From Desulfotalea psychrophila LSv54 (GTDB lineage: Bacteria; Desulfobacterota; Desulfobulbia; Desulfobulbales; Desulfocapsaceae): a stretch of DNA of 32,000 nt. The first letter of the stretch is position 1. Each line of letters starts with the position of its first letter. The DNA lies in contig NC_006138.1 of assembly GCF_000025945.1 (NCBI RefSeq), positions 2,730,001-2,762,000 on the forward strand, given 5' to 3'. Made by a program: the position numbers and the translations under genes. Below are positions 6,713 through 30,704 of this stretch, piece after piece. The notes beneath the pieces were generated by a model that worked only from the letters and a program-made list of their open reading frames with translations, made no database searches and was not told the DNA's origin.

Positions 6713-7224
6713 TAAGCTGTACCACAGTCGCTTGTCCCACCATTTATCTTATCAAGGGCATGGGGAAGAGCGGGCAAAACAACCTCTATATTTTCCCGTG
6801 CGGCCTTAAGACTACCCGGCAGATTAATGATAAGGCTTGTCCCGCGAATACCGGAACAGCCACGGGAGAGCATGGCATGGGGAGTTTTCAGCAGACTTGC
6901 TGCCCTCATCGCCTCGGAGATACCCGGTGTCTCCCGCTCAATAACCTCCCGGGTTGCCTCCGGGGTCACATCCGTCGGTGCCGGCCCTGTGCCTCCGGTG
7001 GTAACAATAAGGTCAACACCCGACTCAACCAGTTCCAATAATTTTGCCACTATGCCATCATGTTTATCGGCCATAATTTCATAATCAGCCAACTGATATC
7101 CCTCTTTTTTAAGACAGTCTATCAGATAAGGACCACTGGTATCCTCCCGTAATCCCAGCGAACCTTTATCACTAAGAGTCACCACCGCAAAACTAAATCG
7201 AGCCGTTCTCATTGTTTTTTCCAT
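6712..7224 (-). CDS. mog: molybdopterin adenylyltransferase Mog/MoaB-family protein
   Basis: Motifs seen: VVTLSDKGS, LIVTTGGTGPAPTDVTPEAT, PGISEAMR, LSRGCSGIRGTSLIINLPGS. The long ORF (to 7278) would run through a hairpin at 7255-7292. The ATG at 7224 follows GAAGG. The ATG at 7212 is an alternative start. Confidence 0.85.
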   Translation of the reverse strand: MEKTMRTARFSFAVVTLSDKGSLGLREDTSGPYLIDCLKKEGYQLADYEIMADKHDGIVAKLLELVESGVDLIVTTGGTGPAPTDVTPEATREVIERETPGISEAMRAASLLKTPHAMLSRGCSGIRGTSLIINLPGSLKAARENIEVVLPALPHALDKINGGTSDCGTA

Positions 7225-7254
7225 AACCTTCTTCTTAACACATGTTAACAAAAT

Positions 7255-7292
7255 AGCCCCTACCCGGGAAAATAACACAGAGGATAGGGGCT
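7255..7292 (-). terminator. stem-loop between the EF-G paralogue and mog (possible terminator or attenuator)
   Basis: An 8-bp inverted repeat, AGCCCCTA (7255-7262) with TAGGGGCT (7285-7292), has a 22-nt loop. On the minus strand it is followed by ATTTTGTT. Confidence 0.35.
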
Positions 7293-7350
7293 TAAAAACT
7301 ACCTAAAATTTCCTATTACATTTAATAGAATTCATGGTGCAGCAAACAAC

Positions 7351-11351: not shown

Positions 11352-11383
11352 ACTCTCCCACCAACAAAGAGAAGCTTGTATTA

Positions 11384-11427
11384 ACAAAAAAAGGAGATAT
11401 CCACCCCTTGGGCAGATACCTCCTTTT
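11384..11427. terminator. bidirectional terminator between convergent murJ and the phasin-like gene
   Basis: The stem pairs 11391-11401 (AAGGAGATATC) with 11415-11425 (GATACCTCCTT), with one mismatch. An A7 run precedes it, giving a T-run on the minus strand. TTTT follows on the plus strand. Confidence 0.5.
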
Positions 11428-11454
11428 AAAATGATCCTAAAACGATTCCTGAGC

Positions 11455-11796
11455 CTACTCAGCCGGTTTATCCCCCGCAGGCTCTTCCTCATCCCCTTTT
11501 AAACCTGCAAGCTCAGCCCGAAGCGAGGCGATCTCCTCCCGAAGTGCCTTCATATCCTCTTTCCGGACAAGATCCATTTTAGCCAGGAGCGAGTTCACCC
11601 CTTCCTCTATCTGCTCTTTGAGCTCCTGACGAGATTTTTCCGCCGAGGCAAGCATATCGCCCACCAACTTTTCACCCTCTTTCTCGCTAATTTTCCCCTT
11701 AGCAATATACTCTTTGGCAATCTCTTCAATCTTTTCTTTAGTAAAAGAGGCCACACCAACTCCGGCAAAAACACCCTTTTTCATCCAATCAATCAT
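11455..11796 (-). CDS. phasin-family / PHA-granule-associated-like coiled-coil protein (COG3937-like)
   Basis: MIDWMKKGVFAGVGVASFTKEKIEEIAKEYIAKGKIS... followed by Glu/Lys-rich coiled coil. The ATG at 11796 has a strong SD (GGAGGGGG) 4 nt upstream. The longer ORF, reaching 11847, would overlap dus. Confidence 0.75.
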   Translation of the reverse strand: MIDWMKKGVFAGVGVASFTKEKIEEIAKEYIAKGKISEKEGEKLVGDMLASAEKSRQELKEQIEEGVNSLLAKMDLVRKEDMKALREEIASLRAELAGLKGDEEEPAGDKPAE

Positions 11797-11824
11797 ATTC
11801 CCCCTCCAGATATATTTTTCTATC

Positions 11825-12814
11825 CTATATGTCCCTTGAAATACCATAAAAATCTTCCGCTGCCTGCACTGCTTCCTCTACAGTATGACTCTTTTGCACG
11901 GCAGAAGCAAGGTGATGGCCAAATTGGTGATTTTTTGCTATATAGTGGGTAAATTCTTTAATTCGACCGAGTTGCCTTTCGGGAGCAAAAATTTCTACCA
12001 TTTTCTGGACAAAGCGAAAATAGATCTCAACCGGCCGGGATTCCGCCACGGGTAGATCCAGGCCATAGACCTCCCTGGCTATTTCATTAAAGAGCCAAGG
12101 CCTCTCCACCGCACCTCGGCCAAGCATAAGCCCAGCAGCACCGGAGAGCTCCAAACATCTGCGGGCATCATCCACCGAAAAGATACCACCATTGGCAAAG
12201 ATGGGAATATCAAGCTGCTCACAGATCGGAGCCAGCAACTGCCAACGAGGCTTTCGACAAAATTTTTCCCCATGATAGCGGGCATGCACGGCAAGTAGAT
12301 CAACACCCTCGGCCTCAAGCATCTTACAAAAATCAAGAAGATGCGCCTCCTTGCCGACATGGCCCACCCGGATTTTAGCCGAGAGAGTCAAATCCGTATG
12401 CCGGCGGGCAGAGGAAACTATATCTCTAACCCGATCCCAGTCTTCAGCCAGAGCTGCCCCCGCCCCACCACGACGTACGGAGGGAGCCGGACAACCCAAA
12501 TTAATATCGACACCATCACCACCAAGACGATGGATCTTATCCAGGGCCGGAGCTACATACTTAACATCCGCAATAAAAAGCTGATATATAAGTGGCCGCT
12601 CACAGGGAGTAGTATGCAAATAGGAGGATACTGCCGGATTTTCATGGGGAAGTCGCCTGGCGGCAAGCATCTCCGTATAAAAAAGACCACAACCACCAAG
12701 ATCAGCTATCAGAGAGCGCAGAGCTGAATGACTCAGGCCAACCATGGGAGCAAGAGAGAGAGGAGGCGCTGCGAGTCGCCCCTCGCCATCCCTCTGCAAA
12801 AACGTTAATTTCAT
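11825..12814 (-). CDS. tRNA-dihydrouridine synthase (Dus family)
   Basis: Motifs seen: LAPMVGLSHSALRSL, GVDINLGCPAPSVRRGGAGAAL (catalytic Cys), SAKIRVG, LAVHARY, IFANGGI and MLGRGAVERPWLF. I chose the start at Met26 (MKLTF, ATG at 12814) so the gene does not overlap the upstream gene, which ends at 12858. Confidence 0.85.
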   Translation of the reverse strand: MKLTFLQRDGEGRLAAPPLSLAPMVGLSHSALRSLIADLGGCGLFYTEMLAARRLPHENPAVSSYLHTTPCERPLIYQLFIADVKYVAPALDKIHRLGGDGVDINLGCPAPSVRRGGAGAALAEDWDRVRDIVSSARRHTDLTLSAKIRVGHVGKEAHLLDFCKMLEAEGVDLLAVHARYHGEKFCRKPRWQLLAPICEQLDIPIFANGGIFSVDDARRCLELSGAAGLMLGRGAVERPWLFNEIAREVYGLDLPVAESRPVEIYFRFVQKMVEIFAPERQLGRIKEFTHYIAKNHQFGHHLASAVQKSHTVEEAVQAAEDFYGISRDI

Positions 12815-12857: not shown

Positions 12858-15140
12858 TTAAACCCAAGAGGCAAGCAGTCCCATATCAAGGGTCTCTTTA
12901 AATTTTATGTGTAGACAATGGGTTGTTATATCTATTATGCGAATCGCAACTATCTGCCCTGAGCAGAAACAGGCATTAGAATCAGGCCCTAATCGTACTG
13001 CCACATTTTCTCCAAGCAGACTATGTACACTGTTTACAAAGCCAGAACGAACAAAAAGTGACACCCCCTGCTGAGAAACATCTCTAGTCTGACCTTTCAC
13101 GGCCTGCGAATCTTCCCTGTCCCCCGTCAAGACAAGATGCGCAGAGGTTTTAATGGGAAAACGTTGAGAGGAACGACGCTCCCCTCCTGACATCTGCACC
13201 AGAGAAGATATGGTATTTCCCTGCGCACAGTAGGCCCTCAACTTTGCTCCCAAATACGGCTCTTTTTTCTCAAAGTTGATAAAATCATCATAGGCGAGAA
13301 CACCCAAATGCGAAAGACCTGTAGCCAACAGATTCACCGACCAAAGAGAGGCATCAAAAAAAAGCCTCTGTCCACAGCACTCTCCCGGACCAAACTTTTT
13401 CAAAAAGACCTTCCTGTTATCAGCAAGATAGAACATTTGCAAAGAGCCATCCAAGACAAAATAGAGACAGGCATTTATCTCACCAACACGCGCAACCTCT
13501 TCTCCGGGACGATACTCCTCTACCTTCATCAGTTTAAAAAAGACATCCTGCTCCTCTTTGCTAAAGCAGGAGGACAATACTCTCTCAATCACCTGCTGAT
13601 TGGGAAAATAATTACTCCTGCGTCGAGCTATCTCTTTTGCCAGGGAGGTATAATCTGCAAACCCCCCCGGGTTAATGGCCATCAGACGATCCACCGTTAA
13701 CTGAGCCGCAAGGAGATCATTTTTCTGCACAAAGGCAAGCCCCTCCTGATAGAGCAGATCTTCCTTTACAATTTTACTGTTCCTCTGCATGGCCCTCTCT
13801 ATTTTTGCCTCAAGCTCACGGAGACTTGCCTGACCACGTTGCAGCTCAACGGGATCCGTATCAAAGAGCACCTCTTCTTCTAGCTTCTTCCGACGTTGCT
13901 CATGACGCAGCTTAGGCCTGACCAAGGCAAGGGCACGCAGCGTGGCCTGTTCAAGCTCTTTAGAAATGGGTTCTTGGCGACTCTCCTCAAGGAGCATGGT
14001 CAACAAAAAGAGAGCTCGCGCTGAAAATTTCTTCTCAAGCACCGCAACAAGAGAGAGCAAGGCCTCCTGATTTTTACGCAGGAGAGAAAATGATCCCTCA
14101 AGAAAATCAAACAAACCCCTATAAACAAAATCACCACCCAGATCCACCAACTCTCTTATGACCCGAGCTTGAAGCGATGGCGCCAAAAGGGGCAAAAGCT
14201 CCAGTAGATGAGGGACAAGGGAGTCCCCTTCCAGAGAAACAATTCCCTCTACAACCGCCTCCTGCAGACGGATATCAGGGGACGCAACATAATCCTTGAG
14301 AACGTCGTAGGAGTTCTCGCCCTCTGCCTCAACATAAATGGAAAGAAGGTTACGGCTAATATACCACGGTGGATTCTTAGATAAATAATCCAAAAGTATA
14401 GCTGTCACGGCCGAACCAAATCCTGTCAGGAGGGTAACAAGCGCCAACCTCTCATCCTTTTCCTGACTCTGCACCATGCGCTGGAGTAAAAAAAGAGCAG
14501 CCTTTCGTCCAAGTAAAACAAAGATGGTAGAAATATCCTCACAGAGACAACCACCCTCAAGATATTCAGTCCACATTTTTTCCAATAATGGTCTGGTTAA
14601 CAGAAGATTTTTAGAGGCAAGAATAGAGCTCCGAATTCGTTGTTCCTTCACCAGTTCCCCACTCCCTATACGATCAACCACCCTGAGAAAACTGTGCACA
14701 GCCCCGTAATCACCACTCTCGACAAGGCTTGCTGCCAATTGACTCATCTGTTTAGCCAAAACAGGAAGGCCAAGGAAATAATCATCCTCTCCTTCGTACC
14801 AAACTCCTGCTTGAGCCAGACAGAGAGAGACGGTCTCCTGAGAAAAAACGCCCTTCCATTTTTCCAAGCCCAGAGAGAGGAGAGACGCCGCCGCAAAACG
14901 AACCTCTTTATCCAAATGCGAAAGAGAGGGCAAGAGGGAGAGAAGAAGTTCAGGTGAACCATCAATAAGCACAAGCAAACCCTGAACAATATCCTCCCTT
15001 AAAATAAGGGAATACTTCCCAGAGATAAATGCCTGACAGCCATCCTCAACACGTTTTTTTTCACGTTCCTCCTCGGCCAAACGAAGACGATCCCGTGTTC
15101 CAAGCAGTGCTGCAGGCTGCTTACTTGTATCAAAATTCAT
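12858..15140 (-). CDS. multidomain protein: N-terminal helical-repeat (HEAT/ARM-like) region, cNMP-binding-like domain with degenerate phosphate-binding cassette, C-terminal PilZ domain
   Basis: 760-aa ORF. The C-terminal ~107 aa carry both PilZ signatures, RRSSQR (RxxxR) and DVSQQG (DxSxxG), about 28 aa apart. Before that lies a beta-barrel-like segment, LYFVLDGSLQMF...FGPGECCGQRLFFDASLWSVNLLA. The N-terminal ~500 aa are Leu-rich helical repeats. Confidence 0.8.
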   Translation of the reverse strand: MNFDTSKQPAALLGTRDRLRLAEEEREKKRVEDGCQAFISGKYSLILREDIVQGLLVLIDGSPELLLSLLPSLSHLDKEVRFAAASLLSLGLEKWKGVFSQETVSLCLAQAGVWYEGEDDYFLGLPVLAKQMSQLAASLVESGDYGAVHSFLRVVDRIGSGELVKEQRIRSSILASKNLLLTRPLLEKMWTEYLEGGCLCEDISTIFVLLGRKAALFLLQRMVQSQEKDERLALVTLLTGFGSAVTAILLDYLSKNPPWYISRNLLSIYVEAEGENSYDVLKDYVASPDIRLQEAVVEGIVSLEGDSLVPHLLELLPLLAPSLQARVIRELVDLGGDFVYRGLFDFLEGSFSLLRKNQEALLSLVAVLEKKFSARALFLLTMLLEESRQEPISKELEQATLRALALVRPKLRHEQRRKKLEEEVLFDTDPVELQRGQASLRELEAKIERAMQRNSKIVKEDLLYQEGLAFVQKNDLLAAQLTVDRLMAINPGGFADYTSLAKEIARRRSNYFPNQQVIERVLSSCFSKEEQDVFFKLMKVEEYRPGEEVARVGEINACLYFVLDGSLQMFYLADNRKVFLKKFGPGECCGQRLFFDASLWSVNLLATGLSHLGVLAYDDFINFEKKEPYLGAKLRAYCAQGNTISSLVQMSGGERRSSQRFPIKTSAHLVLTGDREDSQAVKGQTRDVSQQGVSLFVRSGFVNSVHSLLGENVAVRLGPDSNACFCSGQIVAIRIIDITTHCLHIKFKETLDMGLLASWV

Positions 15141-16088: not shown

Positions 16089-17324
16089 ATGAATAATCGA
16101 CGCATCGTTATCACAGGGGTAGGCCTTGCCGCACCAAATGCGGACAATCTTAAGGAGTTCAGAGAAAAGTTACTTACAGGCACCTCGGAAATCCAGGAAA
16201 TTGACCTGCGTTATTTCGGTAAGGCTCCTGCGGGTATCTGCTCCTTTCCTGAAACCAAATATCGCAAGAAGAAAGAGAATAAGAGAGGGACACGGGCAGG
16301 TTGTTTTGGCGTTTACTGCGCCCACGAGGCCCTAAACGATGCAGGGCTTGACCATGATCACTACGACAAGGCCAGGGTCGGTGTCTATATAGGCCTTACC
16401 GAGCACGGCACAAGCGAAACGGAGAATGAGGTATTTAACATCAGTCAGTATGATTACGATGTTAAATATTGGACTCATCACCACAATCCACGTACCGTCC
16501 TCAACAATCCGGCAGGAGAAATCACCCTCAGCCTGGGCATCACCGGCCCACACTATGTCATTGGCGCAGCCTGTGCGGCGGGCAATGCATCTCTTATCCA
16601 GGCCGTACAGATGCTCCGCCTCGGTGAGGTTGATATGGCAATTGCCGGCGGAATATCAGAATCCACCGGTTCCTTCGGTATTTTTGCCAGCTTTCAAGCC
16701 CAAGGAGCACTCGGACACGCAGAAGATCCCAAGCTAGCCTCACGCCCCTTCGATAAATCCCGTAATGGTATCGTCGTCTCCGAAGGTGCCTGTCTCTATA
16801 TCCTTGAAGATCTCGACAAGGCCCTGGCCCGCGGAGCTAAAATTTATGGCGAAATTGTAGGCTACGGAATGAACTCCGATGCCCGTGACTTTGTCCTTCC
16901 CTATGCCCCGAGACAAGTGCAGTGTATGGAGCTGGCCCTGAAAAAGGCTGGTCTGAAACCAAGCGACATCGATATCGTCAACACCCATGCCACCGGTACA
17001 CCTTCAGGTGATGTAGAGGAGTGCAAGGCCATACGCGCGCTTTTTAGCAATTGTCCCAGCACCTACATCAACAATACCAAATCCATCATTGGCCACGCCA
17101 TGGGGGCCGCCGGAGTACTTGAACTTGCCGGCAACCTACCATCTTTTGATGACAATATTGTTCACCCGACCATCAACATTGAAGAGATTGATCCTGCCTG
17201 TGTCCTTGAAAACCTCGTTATCAACGAGGCTAAACAGGTGGAATCAGTGGAAACCATCCTCAATAATTCCTTTGGAATGGTAGGGATAAATTCCACCATA
17301 ATTGTGAAAAAATTCAAAAAATAG
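16089..17324 (+). CDS. beta-ketoacyl-ACP synthase, KAS I/II (FabF/FabB-like) family
   Basis: Start at MNNRRIVITGVG (ATG 16089). Active-site Cys in GAACAAGN, His in NTHATGTPSGD, His in KSIIGHAMGAAG. The full Cys-His-His triad is present. Confidence 0.9.
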   Translation: MNNRRIVITGVGLAAPNADNLKEFREKLLTGTSEIQEIDLRYFGKAPAGICSFPETKYRKKKENKRGTRAGCFGVYCAHEALNDAGLDHDHYDKARVGVYIGLTEHGTSETENEVFNISQYDYDVKYWTHHHNPRTVLNNPAGEITLSLGITGPHYVIGAACAAGNASLIQAVQMLRLGEVDMAIAGGISESTGSFGIFASFQAQGALGHAEDPKLASRPFDKSRNGIVVSEGACLYILEDLDKALARGAKIYGEIVGYGMNSDARDFVLPYAPRQVQCMELALKKAGLKPSDIDIVNTHATGTPSGDVEECKAIRALFSNCPSTYINNTKSIIGHAMGAAGVLELAGNLPSFDDNIVHPTINIEEIDPACVLENLVINEAKQVESVETILNNSFGMVGINSTIIVKKFKK

Positions 17325-17433
17325 CTCTTCCCCCTCTAAAAATGGTGAAGAAGCTTACTTTTTTGTGTTATAGACACCTGTTGCAAGGCGTCCTACAAAA
17401 TAATTATATATTACAAGATTGTTTGGAGATATT

Positions 17434-17685
17434 ATGACTAACGAAGAAATCAAAGATTTGATCCTTGAAATTATCGAAGATATAGATGACGAAGCTGAAT
17501 TTGAGGGCCTTAACCCGGATGAGCCTCTGCGAGATCAACTTGACCTCGATTCAATGGATTTTCTCGATATTGTTATGGAACTCCGCAAGCGTCATCAACT
17601 CCAAATCCCAGAAGAGGACTACCCACAACTTGCCTCACTATCAAGCTGTGTTGTCTACCTTGCTCCTCTGCTCAAAGACGCATAG
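17434..17685 (+). CDS. acyl carrier protein (dedicated, non-housekeeping context)
   Basis: 83 aa and acidic, with phosphopantetheine site LDLDSMDFLDIV. GGAG lies 7 nt upstream of the ATG at 17434. Confidence 0.85.
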   Translation: MTNEEIKDLILEIIEDIDDEAEFEGLNPDEPLRDQLDLDSMDFLDIVMELRKRHQLQIPEEDYPQLASLSSCVVYLAPLLKDA

Positions 17686-17736
17686 TTCTCTGCAACTATC
17701 AAAAATTTCATACTTTGCTTTCCCGCCTGTACGGGA

Positions 17737-19155
17737 ATGGAGACTCGTGTGAAAGTTCCACTTATTATTATCGGCGGCGGCCTCTCGGGGCTTGCCGCCG
17801 GTGTTCGCAGCAGTCGTTTTGTACCCGAAATTCTCATCCTTGAGAAACATAGCCGGCTCGGTGGGCTCAACTCTTATTACTATCGTCACAAAAACCTCTT
17901 TGAGACAGGTCTGCATGCCATTACCAATTATGCAGAGCCAAGAGATAAGAAAGCTCCACTCAACCGCCTTCTCCGACAACTAAAAATCAAAAGAGAGCTT
18001 CTAGAGATCTGTCCACAGAAGAGGAGTGAAATTCGCTTCCACGGCACAAACTCACTTTTTTTCTCAAATGATTTCGAAATGTTGCAGGAAGAAATTCTGC
18101 AAAAATTTCCGCAATCATACCCTCTTTTTGAAAAAATGCTCAAAAGGTTGGCCGAGGTCGACCCCTACCGACCTGCGCCTTTTACCTCTGCCAAAAAATT
18201 TCTCGATGAGAGCCTGCAAAACCCCCTGCTCAGCCAGATGTTGCTCTGTCCACTGATGTACTACGGTTCAAGCGTGGAAAACGATATGGATCTTGGTCAA
18301 TTTGCCATTATGTTTCAGGCAATTTTTCAGGAGGGAATGTTTCGTCCCAAGGGCACCATCAAGGATCTGCTCACCCTGATTGAAGAAAAATTTCGGGTAA
18401 ACGGCGGAACAATACGCAAAAATGCCGAGGTAGTACGTATCATCTTTGCTGGCAAAGAGGCACGAGGAGTAGAACTTGTAAGTGGTGAGATCATAGAATG
18501 CGACCACCTACTCTCCACCATCGGCCACCATGAGACCATGGCCCTCACCGCCAGCCCTCGGAAACTGCCCCGACAGGATGCCCGCAAAGGCCGCCTTGGC
18601 TTTATCGAGACCATTTTTCAGATCCCCACCGAGAACAGCAGCCAGCTACCAAAGGACAGGACCATTATTTTCTATAACAATGCCGAGAAGTTTCGCTATC
18701 AGCAGGTGGAGACAACGGCAGATTTTGCCAGCGGTGTCATCTGCTTCCCGCAAAATTTTGTGGGGATAGAGGCGGGCAAACATATAGAGGTACGCTCCAC
18801 CCATTTGGCCAGTTATGATCTCTGGCTACAGCTCTACTCCGAAGGCGGCAAACGAGAAAAGTACCTTGCAGCAAAGAAGCTGGTTGCCAGAAACTCTGCC
18901 CGTACCCTTGAGGATTTGATTGGTAAATTTTCTCAAAATACAGTATACCAAGACACCTTCACCCCCATTACCATTGAGCGCTATACCTCAAAAATAGGTG
19001 GTGCTATCTATGGCAGTCCAGACAAAATAAAAGATGGGGATCTTGGTTTTGACAATCTCTTTCTGGCTGGCACAGATCAGGGATTCTTAGGGATTGTCGG
19101 TTCCATGCTCAGTGGCGTTTCCATTGTTAATCAACATATTTTGCCCAAGCTCTAA
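17737..19155 (+). CDS. FAD-dependent oxidoreductase, phytoene desaturase (CrtI/CrtD)-like family, copy 1
   Basis: N-terminal dinucleotide fold PLIIIGGGLSGLAAG followed by LILEKHSRLGGL. At ~470 aa the length is typical of the family. GTG at 17749 is an alternative start. Confidence 0.8.
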   Translation: METRVKVPLIIIGGGLSGLAAGVRSSRFVPEILILEKHSRLGGLNSYYYRHKNLFETGLHAITNYAEPRDKKAPLNRLLRQLKIKRELLEICPQKRSEIRFHGTNSLFFSNDFEMLQEEILQKFPQSYPLFEKMLKRLAEVDPYRPAPFTSAKKFLDESLQNPLLSQMLLCPLMYYGSSVENDMDLGQFAIMFQAIFQEGMFRPKGTIKDLLTLIEEKFRVNGGTIRKNAEVVRIIFAGKEARGVELVSGEIIECDHLLSTIGHHETMALTASPRKLPRQDARKGRLGFIETIFQIPTENSSQLPKDRTIIFYNNAEKFRYQQVETTADFASGVICFPQNFVGIEAGKHIEVRSTHLASYDLWLQLYSEGGKREKYLAAKKLVARNSARTLEDLIGKFSQNTVYQDTFTPITIERYTSKIGGAIYGSPDKIKDGDLGFDNLFLAGTDQGFLGIVGSMLSGVSIVNQHILPKL

Positions 19156-19186
19156 TCCGGGTAAAATCTTATATACGTTCATACTT

Positions 19187-19206
19187 TCAGGGTAGAGATA
19201 CCCTGA
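19187..19206 (+). repeat. perfect 8-bp stem with GAGA tetraloop between the two flavoenzyme genes
   Basis: TCAGGGTA-GAGA-TACCCTGA at 19187-19206. No T-run follows it. Confidence 0.4.
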
Positions 19207-19227
19207 TAACAACATTATTTATTTACC

Positions 19228-20631
19228 ATGCCCGTACCTCTTACGACTGTTTCTGATAATTACGATATTATTGTTGTTGGCTCCGGCCTTGGTGGGCTGA
19301 CCTCCGCTAACCGTCTTGCCCGTTGTGGACACAAGGTATTACTACTTGAGTACCACCACCGCCTTGGTGGCCTTGCCACCTGGTTCAAGAGAAAGGGCCA
19401 TATTTTTGATGTCTCCCTGCACGGCTTTCCCTATGGAATGGTCAAGACCTGCAAAAAATATTGGAACAAGGAGATTATGCACTCCATTGTCCAATTAAAA
19501 AATATCGTCTTTGACAACCCGCAATTTTCTCTCAAAACCACCTTTGATAAAGAAAATTTCACCTGTATCCTGGAAAAGCAGTTCAAGATACCACGCACCA
19601 CCGTCAATAAATTTTTCGAAACCGTTATCGGCATGAACTTTTACGATGATCAGACGATGACCACCCGGGAACTCTTTGAGCAGTTTTTCCCCGGCAGATC
19701 CGATGTGCATCGACTCCTGATGGAACCCATCACCTATGCCAACGGTTCAACCCTGGACGATCCTGCCATTACCTATGGCATTGTTTTTTCAAATTTCATG
19801 GATAAGGGCGTTTTCACCTTTCAGGGTGGTACCGATAAGCTGATTGCCATGATGACCGAAGAACTGGAGAAAAACGGAGTCACCATCTGCACTCAAGCCA
19901 AAGTCGAGCAGATCATCGTTGACAAGGGCCGAGTACAGGGCGTAGAGGTAAATGGCAGAACCATTCAGGCAAAGGCCGTCGTCTCCAATAGCGGTATCAC
20001 CAACACCATCCATAATCTAACGGACCGGGACTGCTACTCCAGTGAATTTATCGAACGGGCAGATAAGATTCGGGTAAACAACTCAAGCTGTCAGGTCTAC
20101 TTTGGCATCAAGGATGGCGAGGCCATCCCCGACGTCGGCGACCTGCTCTTCACCTCCAAGGCAGAGGAATTCAGCTCCGATGAGCTCCTGGATTTCAACA
20201 CAAAGTCAAAGACATTTTCTCTCTACTACCCCAAGACTCGACCGGGCAAGAATCGCTATACCGTTGTTGCCTCGATGAACAGCCGTTATGATGACTGGGC
20301 AAAACTTGGCGAGAATGCCTATGCGGTAGCCAAGGAAGATATGATTGCCCGCAGTCTCAAGGATCTTGAAGGATATCTGCCGGGCGTCTCAGAGAAAATA
20401 GACTGGATGGAGGCCGCAACCCCATGCACCTTCAACAACTATACCCTGCACACCAAGGGCACATCCTTTGGCACCAAGTTCGAAGGTCTTGATATTTCAC
20501 GAAGTATATTTAAGGAAGTGCCAGGTCTCTTCCACGTAGGTTCCGTAGGAATCATCATGTCAGGTTGGCTTGGCGCCATAAATTATGGCGTCATTGTTGC
20601 CAACGATGTCGATGCCTACGTACGATCATAG
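19228..20631 (+). CDS. FAD-dependent oxidoreductase, phytoene desaturase (CrtI/CrtD)-like family, copy 2
   Basis: [20 protein letters not shown] followed by [12 protein letters not shown]. It has the same length and layout as copy 1, so the two are tandem paralogues. Confidence 0.85.
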
Positions 20632-20683
20632 AATAAATACGACTCTCTATAGCCGTAAAAATACCACCTACAAATTCTAAATC

Positions 20684-21424
20684 ATGACATATTTCAAAGA
20701 ACAGATAGCCATTGTTACCGGTGCCACCCGCGGAATCGGCCGAGCCATCAGCATAGCCCTCCTACAAAAAGGCGCCACCGTCCTCGGCATCTATGGTGGT
20801 AACACTGCCGCCGCAGAGACTTTCCAGGACCAATGTGCTGATTTTAATGGTCGATTAAAACTGTATAAATGTAATGTCGCCGACAGCTCAGCTGTAACAG
20901 AGCTCTTCTGCCAAATAGAGGCAGAGTACGACTCTATTGACATCCTGGTAAACAGTGCCGGTATTCGCCGTGATGCCGTCCTGGCCCTGATGAAGGATGA
21001 CGACTGGCAGAGTGTTATTGACGTCAATCTGACGGGTACCTTTCTCATGTGCAAACAGGCTGTATTGCTGATGATGAAAAAGAAATATGGTCGGATCATT
21101 AATATATCTTCGCCTGCCGCCCATGTCGGTTTTGCCGGACAGGCTAACTACTCAGCATCCAAGGCAGGACAAATTGGTCTGACCAGAAGTCTGGCCAAGG
21201 AAGTTGCCAAAAAGAAAATTACAGTAAACTGTGTTTCACCGGGCTTCATTGCCACCGACTTTATTGATGATCTGCCGAAGGAGCAGGTGGCCGAATATAA
21301 AAAGCTTGTGCCCATGCGCCGCTTTGGCAAGGCAGAAGAGATCGCCGATGCAGTACTCTTCCTGGCTGGTGACGGGGCAAACTATATCACAGGTTCCGTA
21401 CTCGACGTAAACGGAGGCCTTTAA
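20684..21424 (+). CDS. fabG: 3-oxoacyl-ACP reductase FabG (SDR family)
   Basis: Motifs seen: TGATRGIGRAI, NSAG, NISS...YSASKAG (Ser-Tyr-Lys triad), PGFIATD. Confidence 0.9.
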   Translation: MTYFKEQIAIVTGATRGIGRAISIALLQKGATVLGIYGGNTAAAETFQDQCADFNGRLKLYKCNVADSSAVTELFCQIEAEYDSIDILVNSAGIRRDAVLALMKDDDWQSVIDVNLTGTFLMCKQAVLLMMKKKYGRIINISSPAAHVGFAGQANYSASKAGQIGLTRSLAKEVAKKKITVNCVSPGFIATDFIDDLPKEQVAEYKKLVPMRRFGKAEEIADAVLFLAGDGANYITGSVLDVNGGL

Positions 21425-21425
21425 T

Positions 21426-21872
21426 ATGGATGAGCTTGACAGAATCAAGAGCCTCATTCCCCACCGAGAGCCATTTTTACAGGTAGATCGTATTATTGGC
21501 TTTGACCGGCAAGAGCTCTGTATCAACACCGAAAAAACCTTTGCCGCCGACCTCGATATCTTCAAGGGACACTATCCCGACAACCCTATCGTTCCCGGGG
21601 TGATCCTCTGCGAGGCAATTTTTCAATCAGGCGCACTCCTTATGGCCCTCTTAGGGCAAGAGAAGCAGGGCGAGCAGGAGAACGCTGTGCCCGTTCTCAC
21701 CCGAATAGGCGGAGCGCGATTCAAACGCTTTGCCGGACCGGGCGACACGGTCCAGATAGAGGTTCGGGTCCAGGAAACCGTGGGTTCAGCCACCTTTTTT
21801 AAGGGCAGATTAAAGGTTGGGGGAAAAACTGCAGTGCAGATAGAATTTAGCTGTGCCATGATAGATAAGTAA
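21426..21872 (+). CDS. fabZ: 3-hydroxyacyl-ACP dehydratase, FabZ/FabA-type hotdog fold
   Basis: Motifs seen: LIPHREPFLQVDRI, catalytic His in FKGHYPDNPIVPGV, Glu in LCEAIFQ. The ATG lies 1 nt after the fabG stop, which suggests translational coupling. Confidence 0.85.
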   Translation: MDELDRIKSLIPHREPFLQVDRIIGFDRQELCINTEKTFAADLDIFKGHYPDNPIVPGVILCEAIFQSGALLMALLGQEKQGEQENAVPVLTRIGGARFKRFAGPGDTVQIEVRVQETVGSATFFKGRLKVGGKTAVQIEFSCAMIDK

Positions 21873-21882
21873 CAGGCAAGCC

Positions 21883-21921
21883 AAAAGGGTGGTGCAACAT
21901 CTCTTCTCCACCCTTTTAAAA
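21883..21921 (+). terminator. possible terminator after the FAS-like cassette
   Basis: AAAAGGGTGG (21883-21892) pairs with CCACCCTTTT (21908-21917) around a 15-nt loop. Read another way, the GGGTGG/CCACCC core is followed by TTTT and then an A-run. Confidence 0.4.
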
Positions 21922-22068
21922 AAAGCCATCAGTGCCTGTCCTGCAATGCCCCCTCTCTTTTGTCCATTGAATTTTTTAATCAAGGCCAGTAAACTAGACA
22001 TCTGTTCAACAACAAAATCAGTGTACTACTTAGCTGTAACTATCCTCTTTTGCCAATAAGGACTTTTC

Positions 22069-22767
22069 GTGGATCTCTCTATTACTCATATGATTCTTAG
22101 CGCAGGACCAATGGTAAAATTTGTCATGCTCGTCCTGCTTGTCTTCTCCGTCAGCTCCTGGACCATTGTTCTGATGAAATGGGCTCTCCTGAGAAACATC
22201 CGCCGCGACAGTGAAGATTTTCTCGACTCTTTTTGGGGATCCCCCAACCTCAATGAGGCATATAAAGAGGTAAATCAATTCCCATATAGCTCTGAAGCCG
22301 CTGTTTTTTCCGCAGGTTTTACTGAGCTACAAAAAATTACTAAAATACAGAGCAGCAAAGAGGAATCAAACCAGCCTCTGGGCATGCAGATGGCCGCCAT
22401 GGACAACCTGAAAAGGGCTGTACGTAAGGCCGAGACACAAAAGTTCAATGAATTCAACAAAGCTCTGCCCTTTTTAGCCACAACAGGAAGCGCAAGCCCC
22501 TTTATTGGTCTCTTTGGTACTGTCTGGGGAATCATGACCTCCTTTCATCAGATTGGTCAACAGGGTTCCGCCTCCCTGGCCGTTGTTGCCCCCGGTATTT
22601 CAGAGGCACTGGTCGTAACAGCAGCAGGACTCTTTGTGGCCATACCTGCCGTTGTCACCTTCAACTACTTCTCTCACAAATTTGACCAAGCGGATGCAGC
22701 AGCTCAACATTTTACCACAGACTTTCTGAACCTCATCGAACGGGATCTGCTGGGTAGAAGTAAATAA
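22069..22767 (+). CDS. tolQ: Tol-Pal system protein TolQ (MotA/TolQ/ExbB proton channel)
   Basis: GTG start with AAGGA 7 nt upstream. Three TM segments. Conserved C-terminal stretch: LATTGSASPFIGLFGTVWGIM..F and APGISEALVVTAAGLFVAIPA. Confidence 0.9.
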   Translation: MDLSITHMILSAGPMVKFVMLVLLVFSVSSWTIVLMKWALLRNIRRDSEDFLDSFWGSPNLNEAYKEVNQFPYSSEAAVFSAGFTELQKITKIQSSKEESNQPLGMQMAAMDNLKRAVRKAETQKFNEFNKALPFLATTGSASPFIGLFGTVWGIMTSFHQIGQQGSASLAVVAPGISEALVVTAAGLFVAIPAVVTFNYFSHKFDQADAAAQHFTTDFLNLIERDLLGRSK

Positions 22768-22860
22768 GCCTTCCGGGTGGCAGAAAATTTAATGTTTTCG
22801 ATAAATATCGAGGATAAGATTTTTACAAAACTTTGCAGAAAACTTTAATAGGGCTCCCAA

Positions 22861-23278
22861 ATGGATAGCAGTCAGGGCAGAAGACCAAAACGACTTGTTT
22901 CAGAAATCAACGTCACCCCCCTTGTCGATGTCATGTTGGTTCTACTTATCATTTTTATGATAACGGCCCCCATGATGACCGCAGGAGTGGATATTGACCT
23001 GCCCGAAACCACCTCAAAGGCCCTTCGCCAAAATGAAAAACCTCTGATGGTTACCATTGATAACAAAAGGGTACTCACCCTTGAGGGTAAGGTCGTCTCT
23101 GAAAAGCTTCTCCCTTCAGGAACTGAAAAAGCTTCCCGCCTCGCTCAAGAAAGAGTCTCTCTTCCTCAAGGCTGACAAAACGGTCCCCTACGGGTATGTC
23201 GTTAACATTATGCCCGAAATCAAAGCAGCTGGTTTCAATAAACTTGGAATGATAACCACCCCAACACAAAAGAACTAG
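22861..23278 (+). pseudogene. tolR: tolR (ExbD/TolR family) interrupted by an apparent +1 frameshift near 23112-23114
   Basis: ORF 22861..23175 encodes the N-terminal TM half (EINVTPLVDVMLVLLIIFMITAP). ORF 23057..23278, in the next frame, encodes the conserved C-terminal half (LFLKADKTVPYGYVVNIMPEIKAAGFNKLGMIT). Removing one C from the CCC run at 23112-23114 gives one continuous 138-aa TolR reading ..GKVVSEKLLLQELKKLPASLKKESLFLKADK... This may be a sequencing error rather than true decay. Confidence 0.7.
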
Positions 23279-23281
23279 CCT

Positions 23282-24115
23282 GTGCTTACAAAAAACCACC
23301 ATACCCCGGAGACATCATTTCCATGGCAGATGCCCTTTGCCATCGTCCTGGCCCTTCATATCGGCCTTGCCCTGGCGGTGACTCTTGCCCCCCAGTTTAG
23401 TCATAAAAAGCCACGCTTTGAAAATATCTACACGGTTGACCTGATAGAACTTGCCCCACCGGTAAAGGTCCAGCGAACAAGCAAGCCACAAAAAATACGT
23501 GCCAAAAGCGTTTCCGTCGCCAAGGTTATACCGGCAAAACTGACTGTGGCAGACCCTGTTTCCATTGCCCCAAAAAAGAAAAAAATTAAAAAAATTCCAC
23601 CAAAATTAAAAGAGAACAAAAAGAGTGCAGATAAGGCCATGGCCCGAGAACGACGCCGCTTAGATCAGGCAATAGTTGCCGAGAAACTTGCTCGGCAGGA
23701 AGCAGAACAGGCACAAAGAGAGCTGGAGGAAGAGGAAAAGCTCTTTAAAAATAGTAAGGGCACCACCTCTCTCCCCACCACTAGAACAGTAAAGAGCGGC
23801 TCACATAACAGGCAAAAGATGACGGGGGTTGAAGCCCAGTGGTTTGCCCGGGTTACAAGTCATCTAATGCAATTTTGGGCCCTGCCGGAGTTGCAGGAAT
23901 GGGATTCCCGTCTGACCACTACAGTGATAATCACCGTTAACCAGGATGGCAGGATCATTAACAATTATTTCGAACATAAATCAGGCAACCGTATCTTCGA
24001 TCAGTTTGTAAAAAAGAGCCTTCAGGATGCAGATCCACTACCCAAGATGCCTGCGGCAATGAAGCAATACCGTTTTGAATTCGGTCTCCACTTTAAACCT
24101 GGCACAATTCAATAA
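23282..24115 (+). CDS. tolA: TolA-like protein (TonB/TolA C-terminal domain)
   Basis: GTG start 4 nt after the tolR stop. One N-terminal TM (FAIVLALHIGLALAVTLA), a Lys/Pro/Glu-rich extended region (KKKKIKKIPPKLKENKK, EAEQAQRELEEEEK) and a C-terminal TonB_C-like fold. It sits between tolR and tolB. Confidence 0.7.
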   Translation: MLTKNHHTPETSFPWQMPFAIVLALHIGLALAVTLAPQFSHKKPRFENIYTVDLIELAPPVKVQRTSKPQKIRAKSVSVAKVIPAKLTVADPVSIAPKKKKIKKIPPKLKENKKSADKAMARERRRLDQAIVAEKLARQEAEQAQRELEEEEKLFKNSKGTTSLPTTRTVKSGSHNRQKMTGVEAQWFARVTSHLMQFWALPELQEWDSRLTTTVIITVNQDGRIINNYFEHKSGNRIFDQFVKKSLQDADPLPKMPAAMKQYRFEFGLHFKPGTIQ

Positions 24116-24232
24116 GATAAACAGAGAATATATTTCGTCTCACCCTATTCTGTGATAAAATGGTTTAAAAATAGGTCAGGACATTTACAACATTCACTTA
24201 TCACTAATTTTATATAGCCAATCACTCACCCC

Positions 24233-25549
24233 ATGATAACTATGAAGAATATCCTAAAATTACGAGCCACAGGCCTTCTCCTCCTACTCCTTCTAATGAT
24301 CTCTGTCCTAGGCAATGGCATAGGACAGGCCATGGCAGCTGATCGTGTCTATCTTGACATAACTGCTCCCGAAACCAGAAAAATCAAAGTCGCAGTCCCC
24401 TGGTTCACCAACACAGGTGAGGGTGGTATGAAGGCAAGAATTGCCAAAGATATTGCCGACACCGTTGCCAAGGCACTAAAATTTCACGGCATTATATCTA
24501 TCATTCCTACCAGCGAATATAAGGGCAGGCAAACGGCTGATTGGGCAAAACTGGGGGCAGATTATGCTGTTTTGGGAAGCTACAAAATGTTTCCAAAAAA
24601 AATTAAACTGGAAATTCGCCTGCTTGATGTGGCCGAAAATAATATCATCCTCGGAAAATCCTATAAGGGTAGCATGAGCCAACAGAACCCAATGATCTTC
24701 AAGTTCTGCGATGCGGCCATCAAATCCCTTACAGGCACTGAAGGTATCGCCTCCAGCCGAATCGCCTTTGTCTCCTACGAAAAAAGGACCAAGGATGTCT
24801 TTATGACCGATATCCTCGGACGGCGAATACGCCAGGTAACCCGGCATAACAACCTTGTAGTCTCTCCCCGTTTCACCCGCGATGGCAACTTCTTAAGCTA
24901 CTCCTCCTACCATTCAGGCAGCCAAAAACTCTATATCACAGATTTACGTCAGGCAAAAATCACCAAATCTCTGTCAAGAAGAAAGGGAATGAACCTTGCC
25001 CCAACCTGGGCTCCCGATGGAAAATCCTGCATCCTTACCCTGTCAAAATATGGTGCCCCCGACCTCTTTCGCATCAACCAGCAGGGAAAGATTCTTGAGC
25101 AGCTCACCAGCAGGGCCGGGGTCAATGTATCGCCAACCTATTCCGCCGATGGCCGGCATATTGTCTTTGTTTCAGATAGAAGCGGCCGCCCGCAACTCTA
25201 CCTGATGGAGTTGGAGACAAAACAGACCAAACGTCTCACCTACGACGGACGAGAAAATGCAGAACCTAATTGGTCCCCTGTGGAAAACAAAATAGCCTAC
25301 TCAAGTCTGCGAGATGGCCTCTATCAAATATTTACCCTGGATCCTTTTAGCGCTGCACCCCCAAAACAGCTGACCTCAGACCTCACCCGTCATGAATCAC
25401 CGGTTTGGTCACCCGATGGCAATCAAATTTTGTTCACCCAATATGACGGTAGACGCCAACAGATATACGCTATAATGAAAAACGGTTCATACCAAAGAAG
25501 GGTCTTTTCTTTCCCAGGCAGCCAATCGTCAGCCCGCTGGGCAAGATAA
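24233..25549 (+). CDS. tolB: Tol-Pal system beta-propeller protein TolB
   Basis: Signal peptide, an N-terminal TolB domain, then repeated propeller blades (P.WAPDGK, SPTYSADGRHIVFVSDRSG.PQLY, PNWSPVENKIAYSS, PVWSPDGNQILF). Confidence 0.9.
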   Translation: MITMKNILKLRATGLLLLLLLMISVLGNGIGQAMAADRVYLDITAPETRKIKVAVPWFTNTGEGGMKARIAKDIADTVAKALKFHGIISIIPTSEYKGRQTADWAKLGADYAVLGSYKMFPKKIKLEIRLLDVAENNIILGKSYKGSMSQQNPMIFKFCDAAIKSLTGTEGIASSRIAFVSYEKRTKDVFMTDILGRRIRQVTRHNNLVVSPRFTRDGNFLSYSSYHSGSQKLYITDLRQAKITKSLSRRKGMNLAPTWAPDGKSCILTLSKYGAPDLFRINQQGKILEQLTSRAGVNVSPTYSADGRHIVFVSDRSGRPQLYLMELETKQTKRLTYDGRENAEPNWSPVENKIAYSSLRDGLYQIFTLDPFSAAPPKQLTSDLTRHESPVWSPDGNQILFTQYDGRRQQIYAIMKNGSYQRRVFSFPGSQSSARWAR

Positions 25550-25601
25550 TAATCCAAAAAACAATAAATAGTCTCTATCATTTACACATCGCTGGTGAGT
25601 T

Positions 25602-26642
25602 ATGAAAAAAAAGCTTCTTACAATGGCACTTTGTCTTGGTCTCGCTCCTCTCCTCTCCCAATGCGCATCTCAGGAGGAAGTACAGACTCTTCATTATCAA
25701 CTACGGGTTATGAATCAAAAGATTGAAAATATTAAGACGGAAAGCCAAAGACTAACCCAGAAAAACCAAGCTGCATCCAACTCACAGCTCGAACAACTTG
25801 ATCAAGAGATCATGATGCTGAAGAACCAGCTTAAGGCAACAAACGAGATTAATAATCGTTTAAAGCAACAAAACAAAGACTTTGAAAAAAACTTCTCCGC
25901 CCTTACCCGCCAAGAGGCAAAAAAACGGGAAAAGGCCATAGGGCAACTACGCCAGGATCAAGAGGTAAAAGAAAAACAGCTTGATTTCCTGAAGAAAAAA
26001 ATTGCCGAGCAGCAGGACAATGTTCACGCCATCCAACAGGCCAGATTACGAGATGCGAAACGCAAAGCGGCAAATGCCAAGAATAAGGCAGACATTCGCA
26101 GAGAGCAAAGAAAAAACATTGCCCAGACTGGCAAAAGTGGCTACATAAAGGCGGAAACCAAAAAGGTTATGAAACCGGTCAAGGACAGTAGCTTTGCCTT
26201 AAGGGAGCCTAGCAAGAGACAACAAAAGGTCACCTCTCAGCAAAAAACAGTAGCCCCGGATAAGGTCATCGCCCCAACCGGTGCAATTTTAATTGCCAAG
26301 GCAAACACTATTTTTAAAGAGAATAGACTGGCAGATGCCTACACAATGTTTGAGGAGATATCCCAGAGTAACTACGATAGCAAGATCACTGCCGAAGCTC
26401 TCTATATGATGGGAGAGTGTCGTTTTTATCAAAAAGATTATGAAGACGCCGTTGTTCGTTATCAGGACTTGATCCGCCAATACCCGGACACGCCCCTCAG
26501 TGCCTCCAGCCTGTTAAGACAGGGAAATTCCTTTGCCAAATCTTTGGACAAGGAAACGTCGAAAATGATTTATAAAAAAGTCATCGAAAAATATCCTGAT
26601 TCTTCCCAGGCAATAGCTGCTACAAAAGAACTTAACAAATAG
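25602..26642 (+). CDS. cpoB: CpoB/YbgF-like protein: signal peptide, long coiled coil, C-terminal TPR domain
   Basis: Signal peptide MKKKLLTMALCLGLAPLLSQCAS, then ~150 aa of Gln/Lys/Glu-rich coiled coil. The C-terminal TPR region matches the YbgF pattern (AEALYMMGECRFYQKDYEDAVVRYQDLIRQYPDTPLSASSLLRQGNSF...KKVIEKYPDSSQA). SD GGTGAG is present. Confidence 0.75.
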   Translation: MKKKLLTMALCLGLAPLLSQCASQEEVQTLHYQLRVMNQKIENIKTESQRLTQKNQAASNSQLEQLDQEIMMLKNQLKATNEINNRLKQQNKDFEKNFSALTRQEAKKREKAIGQLRQDQEVKEKQLDFLKKKIAEQQDNVHAIQQARLRDAKRKAANAKNKADIRREQRKNIAQTGKSGYIKAETKKVMKPVKDSSFALREPSKRQQKVTSQQKTVAPDKVIAPTGAILIAKANTIFKENRLADAYTMFEEISQSNYDSKITAEALYMMGECRFYQKDYEDAVVRYQDLIRQYPDTPLSASSLLRQGNSFAKSLDKETSKMIYKKVIEKYPDSSQAIAATKELNK

Positions 26643-30208: not shown

Positions 30209-30704
30209 GGTCATGCAGGCGGGCAAGCACCTGCTCTTTCAGCTGTGGGGGAAAGCAAGTGTCCCAACAGCTGTACTATGGCCTGTTTATCGAGATAGAG
30301 AGCCCCTCTGGGTAACAGAGAGAAGGTGCAGAGATAGCTGTTGGGCCCCTAAAATTGACGAGACATACTTAAAAGCGGCATAAGTGACCTTTACACTCAA
30401 CAAGGGTTCCTACCGTTTCGTCTCATCTCTTAATAAAAACTCTGCGAAGAGTATCCAAACAGGATGAACTCTTTTTTCGTGCACCCGTAACACCTTTTCG
30501 CTTTTTCCAAGCTATTTTAGCAATTTGCATAGGACTAATATCAACTTTCGGTAAAAAACCATCAAGAGCACATAAACCACGATAACACTCCTCAAATAGG
30601 ATACATGACCAGTGGTGAAATTCTCTTTTTTGCAAAATATTGCAGCTGACATCGTCTTTACAGTATACGAGTTAAGCTGCTTATGATTTAAGGGAGAAAA
30701 AAAG

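Follow-up and report, generated by a model that had tools for sequence, protein, structure and literature searches.

The 32,000-nucleotide stretch of DNA analyzed here (the window) carries a cassette of six genes that encode a ketoacyl synthase (KAS), an acyl carrier protein (ACP), two flavoenzymes of the CrtI superfamily (FLV1 and FLV2), a FabG-type reductase, and a FabZ-like dehydratase (Table 1). As FLV1 is 100% identical to a Desulfotalea psychrophila protein named "phytoene desaturase family protein" by NCBI (468 aa), the window was assigned to the chromosome of D. psychrophila LSv54. All six genes lie on the forward strand, with intergenic gaps of 109, 51, 72, 52, and 1 nt. The list of open reading frames (ORFs) agreed in coordinates and spacing with the original prediction, which had been made from the sequence alone, and Pfam and NCBIfam searches backed the assignment of each gene. 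An upstream TTG at position 16053 is also open as an alternative start for the KAS gene.

Table 1. Features of the six-gene cassette and its 3' flank, in window coordinates
Feature	Position	Strand	Remarks
KAS, FabF/FabB-type paralogue with Cys-His-His triad	16089..17324	+	ATG start; Pfam ketoacyl-synt N and C domains
ACP, phosphopantetheine serine in LDSMDF	17434..17685	+	PF00550
FLV1 (flavoenzyme 1), CrtI/amine-oxidase superfamily, 472 aa	17737..19155	+	PF01593, PF13450
FLV2 (flavoenzyme 2), CrtI/CRTISO/CrtD superfamily, 467 aa	19228..20631	+	PF01593
FabG-type 3-oxoacyl-ACP reductase (short-chain dehydrogenase), Ser-Tyr-Lys triad	20684..21424	+	adh_short_C2, 2e-63
FabZ-like 3-hydroxyacyl-ACP dehydratase, hotdog fold, His49 and Glu63	21426..21872	+	PF07977
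Stem-loop past the last gene, probable operon terminator	21883..21917	+	10-bp stem, -17.3 kcal/mol, z = -2.1

Every catalytic motif that had been described as intact was located. In the 411-aa form of the KAS, the active-site cysteine lies within GAACAAG (residues 159 to 165) and the two histidines lie within THATGT (from residue 299) and GHAMGA (from residue 335). The ACP carries DSM at residues 39 to 41, FabG carries TGATRGIG, NISS140, and Y156-x3-K160, and FabZ carries GH49YP and PGVILCE63. Comparison with curated families gave a different picture, as the catalytic residues of each enzyme of a housekeeping type II fatty acid synthase (FAS) were present but equivalog-level scores were missed. 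The KAS scored 320 bits against the fabF model TIGR03150 (cut-off, 494), with a weak partial match to the PfaA model (94 bits versus 1010), and the ACP reached only 28 to 35 bits against all NCBIfam ACP models, the cut-offs of which range from 65 to 84. FabZ scored 108 bits against TIGR01750 (cut-off, 155) and 107 bits against a second fabZ model (cut-off, 113), and the FabA models gave 18 to 21 bits against the cassette. FabG was just under the cut-off of TIGR01830 (293.8 versus 297.75 bits) and passed the subfamily model NF009466 (264 versus 222 bits). Because the catalytic residues are kept and the equivalog cut-offs are missed, the FabF-, ACP-, and FabZ-like proteins appear to be specialized paralogues, distinct from the housekeeping FAS, in line with the prediction of a dedicated ACP-dependent pathway. 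The catalytic motifs were largely kept in the KAS and ACP orthologues examined, and the LDSMDF signature of the ACP family was present in 41 of 52 orthologues.

Both flavoenzymes show the hallmarks of the CrtI-family fold, with a GxGxxG motif that binds flavin adenine dinucleotide (FAD) (GGGLSG13 in FLV1 and GSGLGG18 in FLV2), an E-x-H-x-RLGG segment (EKHSRLGG36 and EYHHRLGG41, respectively), and the Pfam matches given in Table 1. They are distant paralogues, sharing 24% identity over 434 columns (E = 8e-27). Against the curated models of the family, both failed: FLV1 and FLV2 scored 43.1 and 91.9 bits, respectively, against crtI_fam (TIGR02734; cut-off, 238.1), 37 and 108 bits against the CrtD model (cut-off, 550), and 49 and 111 bits against carot_isom (cut-off, 587), with carotenoid isomerase being the best NCBIfam model for FLV1 and FLV2 alike. 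Using Foldseek, AlphaFold2 models of FLV1 (predicted local distance difference test score, 88) and FLV2 (score, 75) were found to resemble most closely 4rep, a CrtD-like desaturase (template modeling [TM] scores of 0.70 and 0.73, respectively), followed by 4dgk (CrtI) and 3ka7, at 14 to 18% identity. The sequence of FLV2 also matched 4rep (2e-10) and 4dgk (2e-9) in PDB. FLV1 belongs to a compact family, with 181 representative clusters at E <= 1e-30 among 1.84 billion proteins. No phytoene, dehydrosqualene, or squalene synthase was found in the window or among the recurrent annotated neighbors in the 85 loci described below. That FLV1 and FLV2 are carotenoid enzymes, an alternative raised alongside the original prediction, was ruled out by the low family scores together with the lack of such a synthase at annotated loci. 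Judged from gene content, the distinctive chemistry of the cassette must come from these two flavoenzymes.

To identify related loci, a profile built from a 16-sequence alignment of FLV1 was used to scan one genome per species (an alignment of 54 diverse relatives was too divergent for this use). The 80 loci recovered, with the addition of a Desulfocapsa locus, formed a set of 81, onto which the window proteins were mapped by tblastn and in which neighbors were considered within 8 kb. The order KAS-ACP-FLV1, with all three genes on one strand, was retained in Desulfobulbales, Bacteriovoracia/Oligoflexia, Nitrospinota, Dehalococcoidales (Chloroflexota), Planctomycetota (Pirellulales, Planctomycetaceae, Thermoguttaceae, Gimesia, and a Kuenenia metagenome-assembled genome [MAG]), and Opitutales, such that this core is shared by at least six phyla. 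The core is usually followed by FLV2 and FabZ and, in some lineages, by FabG. Identity across phyla was 60 to 66% for KAS (60 to 80% for KAS orthologues overall) and 56 to 63% for FLV2 but only 39 to 47% for FLV1. As dozens of genomes share the gene order, the six-gene block cannot be ascribed to chance.

The limits of the unit could be set from the closer relatives within Desulfobulbales (Desulfocapsa, Desulforhopalus, and Desulfobulbaceae MAGs; loci L001 to L021 and L071), in which the six genes are followed by tolQRAB and the upstream gene differs. As the upstream neighbor is not conserved, the six genes form a unit that excludes the adjacent SH3 gene of the window, and this gene was rejected as a member. 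The order cassette-tolQ-tolR-tolA-tolB-TPR (CpoB-like) is shared between the window (21426 to 26642) and L001 to L021 and L071, and an FtsJ-type methyltransferase gene follows the TPR gene in the window and at least in L001. A functional tie to tol-pal was likewise rejected, the tol synteny being restricted to Desulfobulbales loci of the window type.

Departures from the common arrangement were seen at several loci. In the MAG labeled "Ca. Kuenenia stuttgartiensis" (L050), a KAS-ACP-FLV1 triad lies at 6465 to 9380, with 60%, 48%, and 40% identity, respectively, to the window proteins; no FLV2, FabZ, radical SAM, or ole gene was found within 8 kb. Its gene order is unlike that of the published kuste3603-3608 or kuste3335-3352 clusters, and it represents either an artifact of binning or a third locus absent from earlier reports. 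In the chromosome of the cable bacterium "Ca. Electronema halotolerans" (L022, 3066 to 12525), unrelated genes split the cassette: between KAS and ACP lie a D-Ala-D-Ala-ligase/S58-peptidase fusion and a histone-deacetylase-family gene, and between FLV1 and FLV2 lie a cold-shock/DUF1294 gene and a PAS gene. FLV1-family genes with 38 to 47% identity and no KAS or ACP neighbor were identified in Victivallales (L031, L036, L054, and L057), Opitutales (L073), and Planctomycetota (L077 to L079 and L081), one of them adjoining planctomycete PSD/PSCyt-domain genes. The FLV1 family may thus have functions independent of the cassette as well, or its partners may be encoded at other sites in those genomes.

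Clustering of the neighboring ORFs over all loci yielded four recurrent families, which were OleA-, OleB-, OleC-, and OleD-like. The OleA-like proteins exceeded the cut-off of NF006720 (KASIII-type) with 396 bits and scored 231 bits against 3row, 3s1z, 4ku2, and the 5vx and 6b2 series of structures, which we take to be Xanthomonas campestris OleA, versus 88 bits against FabH structures. The OleB-like family consists of haloalkane-dehalogenase-type alpha/beta hydrolases. The OleC-like family scored 506 bits against the olefin beta-lactone synthetase model, second to a generic fatty-acid coenzyme A ligase family model, and the 2-alkyl-3-oxoalkanoate reductase model was the best match of the OleD-like family (392 bits). 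At least one ole gene was present within 8 kb at 20 of the 81 loci, which included all five from Bacteriovoracia/Oligoflexia, six of 22 from Planctomycetota, and five of 14 from Opitutales; OleD-like matches of 25 to 26% identity beside two Opitutales cassettes (L062 and L067) were left out of this count. At one locus (L060), the ole genes are embedded in the cassette, in the order KAS-ACP-FLV1-OleA-OleB-OleC-OleD-FLV2-FabG-FabZ-FabI.

A reverse search with OleA of a Desulfobulbales-type contig showed that all three long Desulfobulbaceae-type contigs (L082 to L084) carry both the cassette and ole genes, in a single co-directional array with the order KAS-ACP-FLV1-FLV2-FabG-FabZ-FabI-OleA-OleB-OleC(-OleD). 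Their KAS and FLV2 proteins share 67 to 74% and 71 to 74% identity, respectively, with those of the window. As relatives continue with a FabI-like gene and oleABCD, the window cassette appears to represent the first six genes of an 11-gene cluster and not the self-contained block that had been proposed. In the D. psychrophila lineage, the cassette stands apart from the FabI-like and ole part. Two variants of the array were also seen. In L063, the cassette-FabI-OleA-OleB array is intact except that an Mrr-type restriction endonuclease gene (10898 to 11863) separates FLV2 from FabG. In a Dehalococcoidales MAG (L027, 3 to 9261 and beyond), the locus is expanded to a KASIII-like gene, KAS, ACP, a KASIII-like gene, a second KAS, FLV1, FLV2, FabG, FabZ, and a FabI-like gene; the KASIII-like proteins share 41 to 44% identity with OleA, and both OleA and FabH-type starter enzymes are possible identities.

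The FabI-like gene bears on the suggestion that the flavoenzymes stand in for a missing enoyl reductase. RetSat is a saturase of the CrtI/CRTISO superfamily, so that one or both flavoenzymes could act as an enoyl-ACP reductase of this kind and complete an alternative FAS for saturated chains, and FabI, FabK, and FabV are indeed missing from the window cassette. However, a FabI-like short-chain dehydrogenase/reductase (SDR) gene lies directly after FabZ in clusters that keep both flavoenzymes, at 17 of the 81 scanned loci as well as at L082 to L085. The FabI-like reductase thus appears to belong to the ancestral cluster, in which case the flavoenzymes would not be reductase substitutes, and we regard such a role as very improbable.

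From the sequence alone, the block had not been assignable to a characterized pathway, but it was already published in 2009 as a hypothesis and is not a new discovery. Rattray et al. noted a "striking" synteny of the candidate ladderane clusters of anammox bacteria with D. psychrophila, named DP1860, DP2405, and DP2406 as phytoene-dehydrogenase-like genes within FAS-like clusters, and proposed a novel anaerobic pathway to polyunsaturated fatty acids (PUFA) and polyunsaturated hydrocarbons (PUHC) (PMC2649909). Matched by organism and gene content and not by locus tags, FLV1 and FLV2 of the window are most likely DP2405 and DP2406. D. psychrophila contains C31:8 and C31:9 hydrocarbons, which make up 5% of its lipid and have fatty-acid-like 13C values, while no ladderanes and no Pfa/polyketide synthase (PKS) genes were found in it (PMC2649909); it is also not among the organisms listed in a 2011 survey of pfa-like clusters (PMC3098273). 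The earlier work, with its two adjacent phytoene-dehydrogenase-like genes in a FAS-like cluster that is most likely the same locus, predates the Ole pathway and drew no link to ole genes. No earlier link of such cassettes to ole genes was found in the literature searched, which was limited to journals open without subscription. What is new here is the conservation across phyla, the association with ole genes and a FabI-like gene, and a defined role proposed for the two flavoenzymes.

The hydrocarbon itself connects the cassette with systems in which its synthesis has been described. In Shewanella, C31:9 is produced when OleABCD condenses two Pfa-made 16:4(n-3) chains, giving a methylene-interrupted product, and Geobacter bemidjiensis, another C31:9 producer, carries a tandem pfaDABC-oleABCD-pfaE arrangement (PMC4882568). 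Since both adjoin oleABCD, the Desulfobulbaceae cassette takes, by analogy, the position of pfa in the Geobacter arrangement. The hydrocarbon n-C31:9 is "often present in planctomycetes" (PMC6995999, PMC3327967), and in the genus of the C31:9 producer Lacipirellula parvula, L. limnantheis was found to carry KAS-ACP-FLV1-FLV2-FabZ-FabI-like.

With moderate confidence, we favor the interpretation that the cassette encodes a dissociated type II, flavoenzyme-dependent polyunsaturated-acyl synthase that feeds OleABCD, in which the flavoenzymes act as isomerases or desaturases during elongation. The original prediction of a dedicated pathway with flavoenzyme chemistry stands, with desaturation or isomerization as the live option, whereas its self-contained nature, the reductase substitution, and its undescribed status do not. 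In the mechanism proposed, the dedicated KAS would lengthen the chain on the dedicated ACP with malonyl units, and FabG and FabZ would yield a trans-2-enoyl-ACP in each cycle. FLV1 and FLV2 would intercept some of these trans-2-enoyl-ACPs and fix cis double bonds, most likely as redox-neutral, flavin-dependent isomerases, one converting trans-2 to cis-3 and the other trans-2 to cis-2. CRTISO and type 2 isopentenyl diphosphate isomerase are precedents for redox-neutral isomerization with a reduced flavin, and both flavoenzymes score best on the carotenoid isomerase model. A 16:4(n-3)-type chain would need each of the two isomerizations twice: by our own step count for 16:4(4,7,10,13), trans-2-to-cis-3 at C6 and C12 and trans-2-to-cis-2 at C8 and C14, with full reductions at C4, C10, and C16. 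The few cycles with full reduction would use a FabI-type reductase, which most lineages encode within the cluster and which would presumably be the housekeeping FabI in D. psychrophila. The polyunsaturated acyl chain would then pass to OleA, and head-to-head condensation by OleABCD would give the C31:8 and C31:9 hydrocarbons of D. psychrophila. Two isomerases and an occasional reductase would fit the gene content and would account for the retention of a KAS, reductase, dehydratase, and ACP dedicated to this pathway.

Ranked second, and judged unlikely, is an explanation with the same product and the same Ole link in which the flavoenzymes are CrtI-like dehydrogenases that carry out O2-free oxidative desaturation of the growing or finished acyl-ACP, passing electrons to quinone. 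The predicted fold and the best structural matches, 4rep and 4dgk, both of them carotenoid desaturases, are consistent with this role. CrtI performs several successive desaturations, CrtI-type enzymes use quinones, and UfaD offers a precedent as a CrtI-like fatty-acyl desaturase. It is also the role put forward by Rattray et al. (PMC2649909). Desaturation of a finished chain, however, would not call for a dedicated KAS, reductase, dehydratase, and FabI. Likewise, if finished chains were all that the flavoenzymes modified, there would be no need for a KAS, ACP, reductase, and dehydratase of their own, which favors action during elongation. Furthermore, a CrtI-type reaction extends conjugation, whereas the C31:9 of Shewanella is methylene-interrupted (PMC4882568).

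A number of observations weigh against the proposed polyunsaturated-acyl synthase. No oleA, oleB, oleC, or oleD was found by tblastn over the 32-kb window, nor was a FabI-like or pfa gene found in it, and at every Desulfocapsaceae locus it is tolQRAB, and not ole, that comes after the cassette. Nitrospinota and many planctomycete loci have no ole gene within 8 kb. No Desulfotalea protein is among the best 120 OleA homologues, all of which are at least 66% identical, making this result uninformative, and no record of ole genes in D. psychrophila was found in the literature searched. The Kuenenia MAG has KAS-ACP-FLV1, yet Kuenenia lacks polyunsaturated hydrocarbons (PMC2649909). In addition, the chemistry of the CrtI family is best known for conjugated systems and not for skipped cis dienes, and the isomerase and desaturase roles appear to fit the present evidence alike.

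The association with tol-pal and the strong conservation of the cassette in Desulfocapsaceae are features that would also suit a housekeeping role, namely, an anaerobic route to monounsaturated membrane fatty acids that replaces FabA/FabB, as FabX does, and has no link to hydrocarbons. FabX is a flavoenzyme precedent for such a route, although it belongs to a flavin mononucleotide (FMN)-dependent family different from the CrtI type. D. psychrophila is a strict anaerobe and a psychrophile, and K. stuttgartiensis is without fabA (PMC2649909). Against this, the cassette extends to aerobic Planctomycetota and Opitutales and lies repeatedly within or beside oleABCD; a single isomerase would do, yet two divergent flavoenzymes are conserved together, and the private ACP suggests separation from bulk lipid synthesis. 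We therefore consider a housekeeping role improbable. FabX (of Helicobacter and Neisseria), FabA, and FabM resemble the proposed route in concept, as the double bond is fixed on ACP during elongation (by a flavoenzyme in FabX). They differ in that they make membrane monoenes on the housekeeping ACP with no ole link, and FabX belongs to a different family that is unrelated in fold.

Another improbable explanation is that the product is a conjugated polyene or other specialized lipid, of the aryl-polyene or highly reducing type II PKS-like kind, or a ladderane-related intermediate, with the flavoenzymes isomerizing or partly saturating a polyene. Like aryl-polyene, flexirubin, and highly reducing type II PKS clusters, the cassette has a discrete ketosynthase (KS), ACP, FabG-like ketoreductase, and FabZ/ApeI-like dehydratase, and no enoyl reductase is present in the window. 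FabZ orthologues also match ApeI-like and ApeP-like Pfam families, weakly or unmarked, and FabG scored 252 bits against the flexirubin FlxB model. In a 2023 metagenome study, such clusters were annotated as "ladderane" biosynthetic gene clusters (BGCs) in Desulfobacterota, Verrucomicrobiota, and non-anammox Planctomycetota, with their function unexplained (PMC9902471), and there is the synteny with anammox clusters (PMC2649909). The FlxB score, however, is under the 340-bit cut-off; the window lacks a chain-length factor (CLF), aryl-starter ligase, LolA/MMPL exporter, acyl- or glycosyltransferase, and radical SAM enzyme; most lineages include a FabI-like reductase in the cluster; and D. psychrophila was found to contain no ladderanes (PMC2649909). 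Aryl-polyene, flexirubin, and related PKS clusters also contain no flavoenzymes of the FLV type, while relatives of the cassette carry a FabI-like gene, and the CLF, aryl starter module, exporter, and acyltransferase genes are all missing from the cassette. An aryl-polyene, flexirubin, or xanthomonadin cluster as such, the other alternative raised with the original prediction, was rejected, since its hallmark genes were not found in the window and the FlxB score was below the cut-off.

Comparison with the remaining known systems separates the proposed polyunsaturated-acyl synthase from each of them. Anammox Cluster I (kuste3603-3608), compared by its published composition, shares a private ACP, FabZ, FabF-type synthases, and a phytoene dehydrogenase (PDH)-like flavoenzyme with the cassette, but it differs in gene order and in its FabF2/FabFmut heterodimer, single PDH-like gene, and B12 radical SAM enzyme. 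In the window, one KAS, the triad of which is intact, is accompanied by two flavoenzymes and FabG, and a radical SAM gene is absent. When the anammox PDH-like genes kuste3336 and kuste3607 were used in place of crtI, no lycopene was formed (PMC4790861). Pfa with OleABCD, as in Shewanella and Geobacter bemidjiensis, would match the cassette in its proposed role, anaerobic and elongation-coupled synthesis of a polyunsaturated chain for OleA leading to C31:9, and in its position beside oleABCD. Pfa, however, is of type I and multidomain, combining KS/CLF and tandem ACPs with FabA-like dehydratase/isomerase domains and the PfaD reductase, while the cassette proteins are all single-domain, have no FabA-like domain, and instead include two CrtI-superfamily flavoenzymes. 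The two assemblies are not homologous, and the FabA-like domains of Pfa supply the two isomerase activities that are proposed here for the flavoenzymes. With CrtI, CrtD, and CRTISO, FLV1 and FLV2 share the FAD-binding amine-oxidase fold (best structures, 4rep and 4dgk; TM scores of 0.55 to 0.73). They differ from them in their 14 to 18% identity to the structures, scores 5- to 12-fold under the family cut-offs, and ACP-dependent partners, with no phytoene or squalene synthase seen at the loci.

More broadly, and tentatively, the cassette could represent a third bacterial route to polyunsaturated acyl chains besides O2-dependent desaturases and Pfa, namely, a type II, O2-free system with two flavoenzymes placing cis double bonds on ACP-bound intermediates that supplies the C31:9 precursor to OleABCD in Desulfobulbales, Planctomycetota, Opitutales, and Bacteriovoracia and that also explains the "ladderane-type" BGCs outside anammox bacteria. 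If true, this would answer where the polyunsaturated precursor comes from in C31:9 makers that lack Pfa (D. psychrophila and possibly many planctomycetes) and would give a role to the antiSMASH "ladderane-like" clusters of Desulfobacterota, Verrucomicrobiota, and Planctomycetota. It would also hint at the chemistry of the PDH-like flavoenzyme in the still unsolved ladderane pathway and provide engineering with a compact, O2-independent set of small soluble enzymes that make polyunsaturated chains and polyene hydrocarbons. Direct tests are within reach, as the organisms can be cultured, some planctomycetes are open to genetic manipulation, and an array of 11 genes is of a size suited to heterologous expression.

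The flanks of the cassette in the window were also examined. The SH3 gene upstream, which encodes an SH3-and-anchor protein, ends at 15964, leaving 124 nt to the start of the cassette. The stem-loop past the last gene, reported in the original prediction, proved real: its stem is formed by AAAAGGGTGG and CCACCCTTTT, encloses a loop of 15 nt, and was folded equally well by only six of 200 shuffled sequences. It was missed by a consensus terminator scan because the loop exceeds 8 nt; promoter and terminator scans of the window were otherwise at chance level, and Rfam and tRNA searches of the window gave no matches. The tolQ gene begins 152 nt downstream and is followed by tolR, a TolA/TonB-like gene, tolB, a TPR gene (CpoB-like), and the FtsJ-type methyltransferase gene. 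In agreement with the prediction, no CrtB/CrtM or other carotenoid synthase, enoyl reductase, acyltransferase, ligase, or thioesterase was found in the 32-kb window.

Several other ORFs in the window were noted. Divergent from the SH3 gene and the cassette, the gene at 12858 to 15140 on the reverse strand encodes a 760-aa protein in which HEAT repeats and a cyclic-nucleotide-binding domain are combined with a PilZ domain at the C terminus. At 3468 to 4862 on the forward strand, a putative ATP-dependent zinc protease domain (PF05618) and a RimK-type ATP-grasp ligase are joined in one ORF of 464 aa. A 480-aa ORF at 28766 to 30208, also on the forward strand, joins an endonuclease III/HhH-GPD DNA glycosylase (residues 39 to 172) to an ExoIII-type AP endonuclease (residues 231 to 471), a fusion that would unite a base-excision glycosylase and an AP endonuclease on one polypeptide. 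Lastly, a forward-strand ORF of at least 438 aa (approximately 30690 to 32000) crosses the right edge of the window, in a region of low GC content (0.41 to 0.42).

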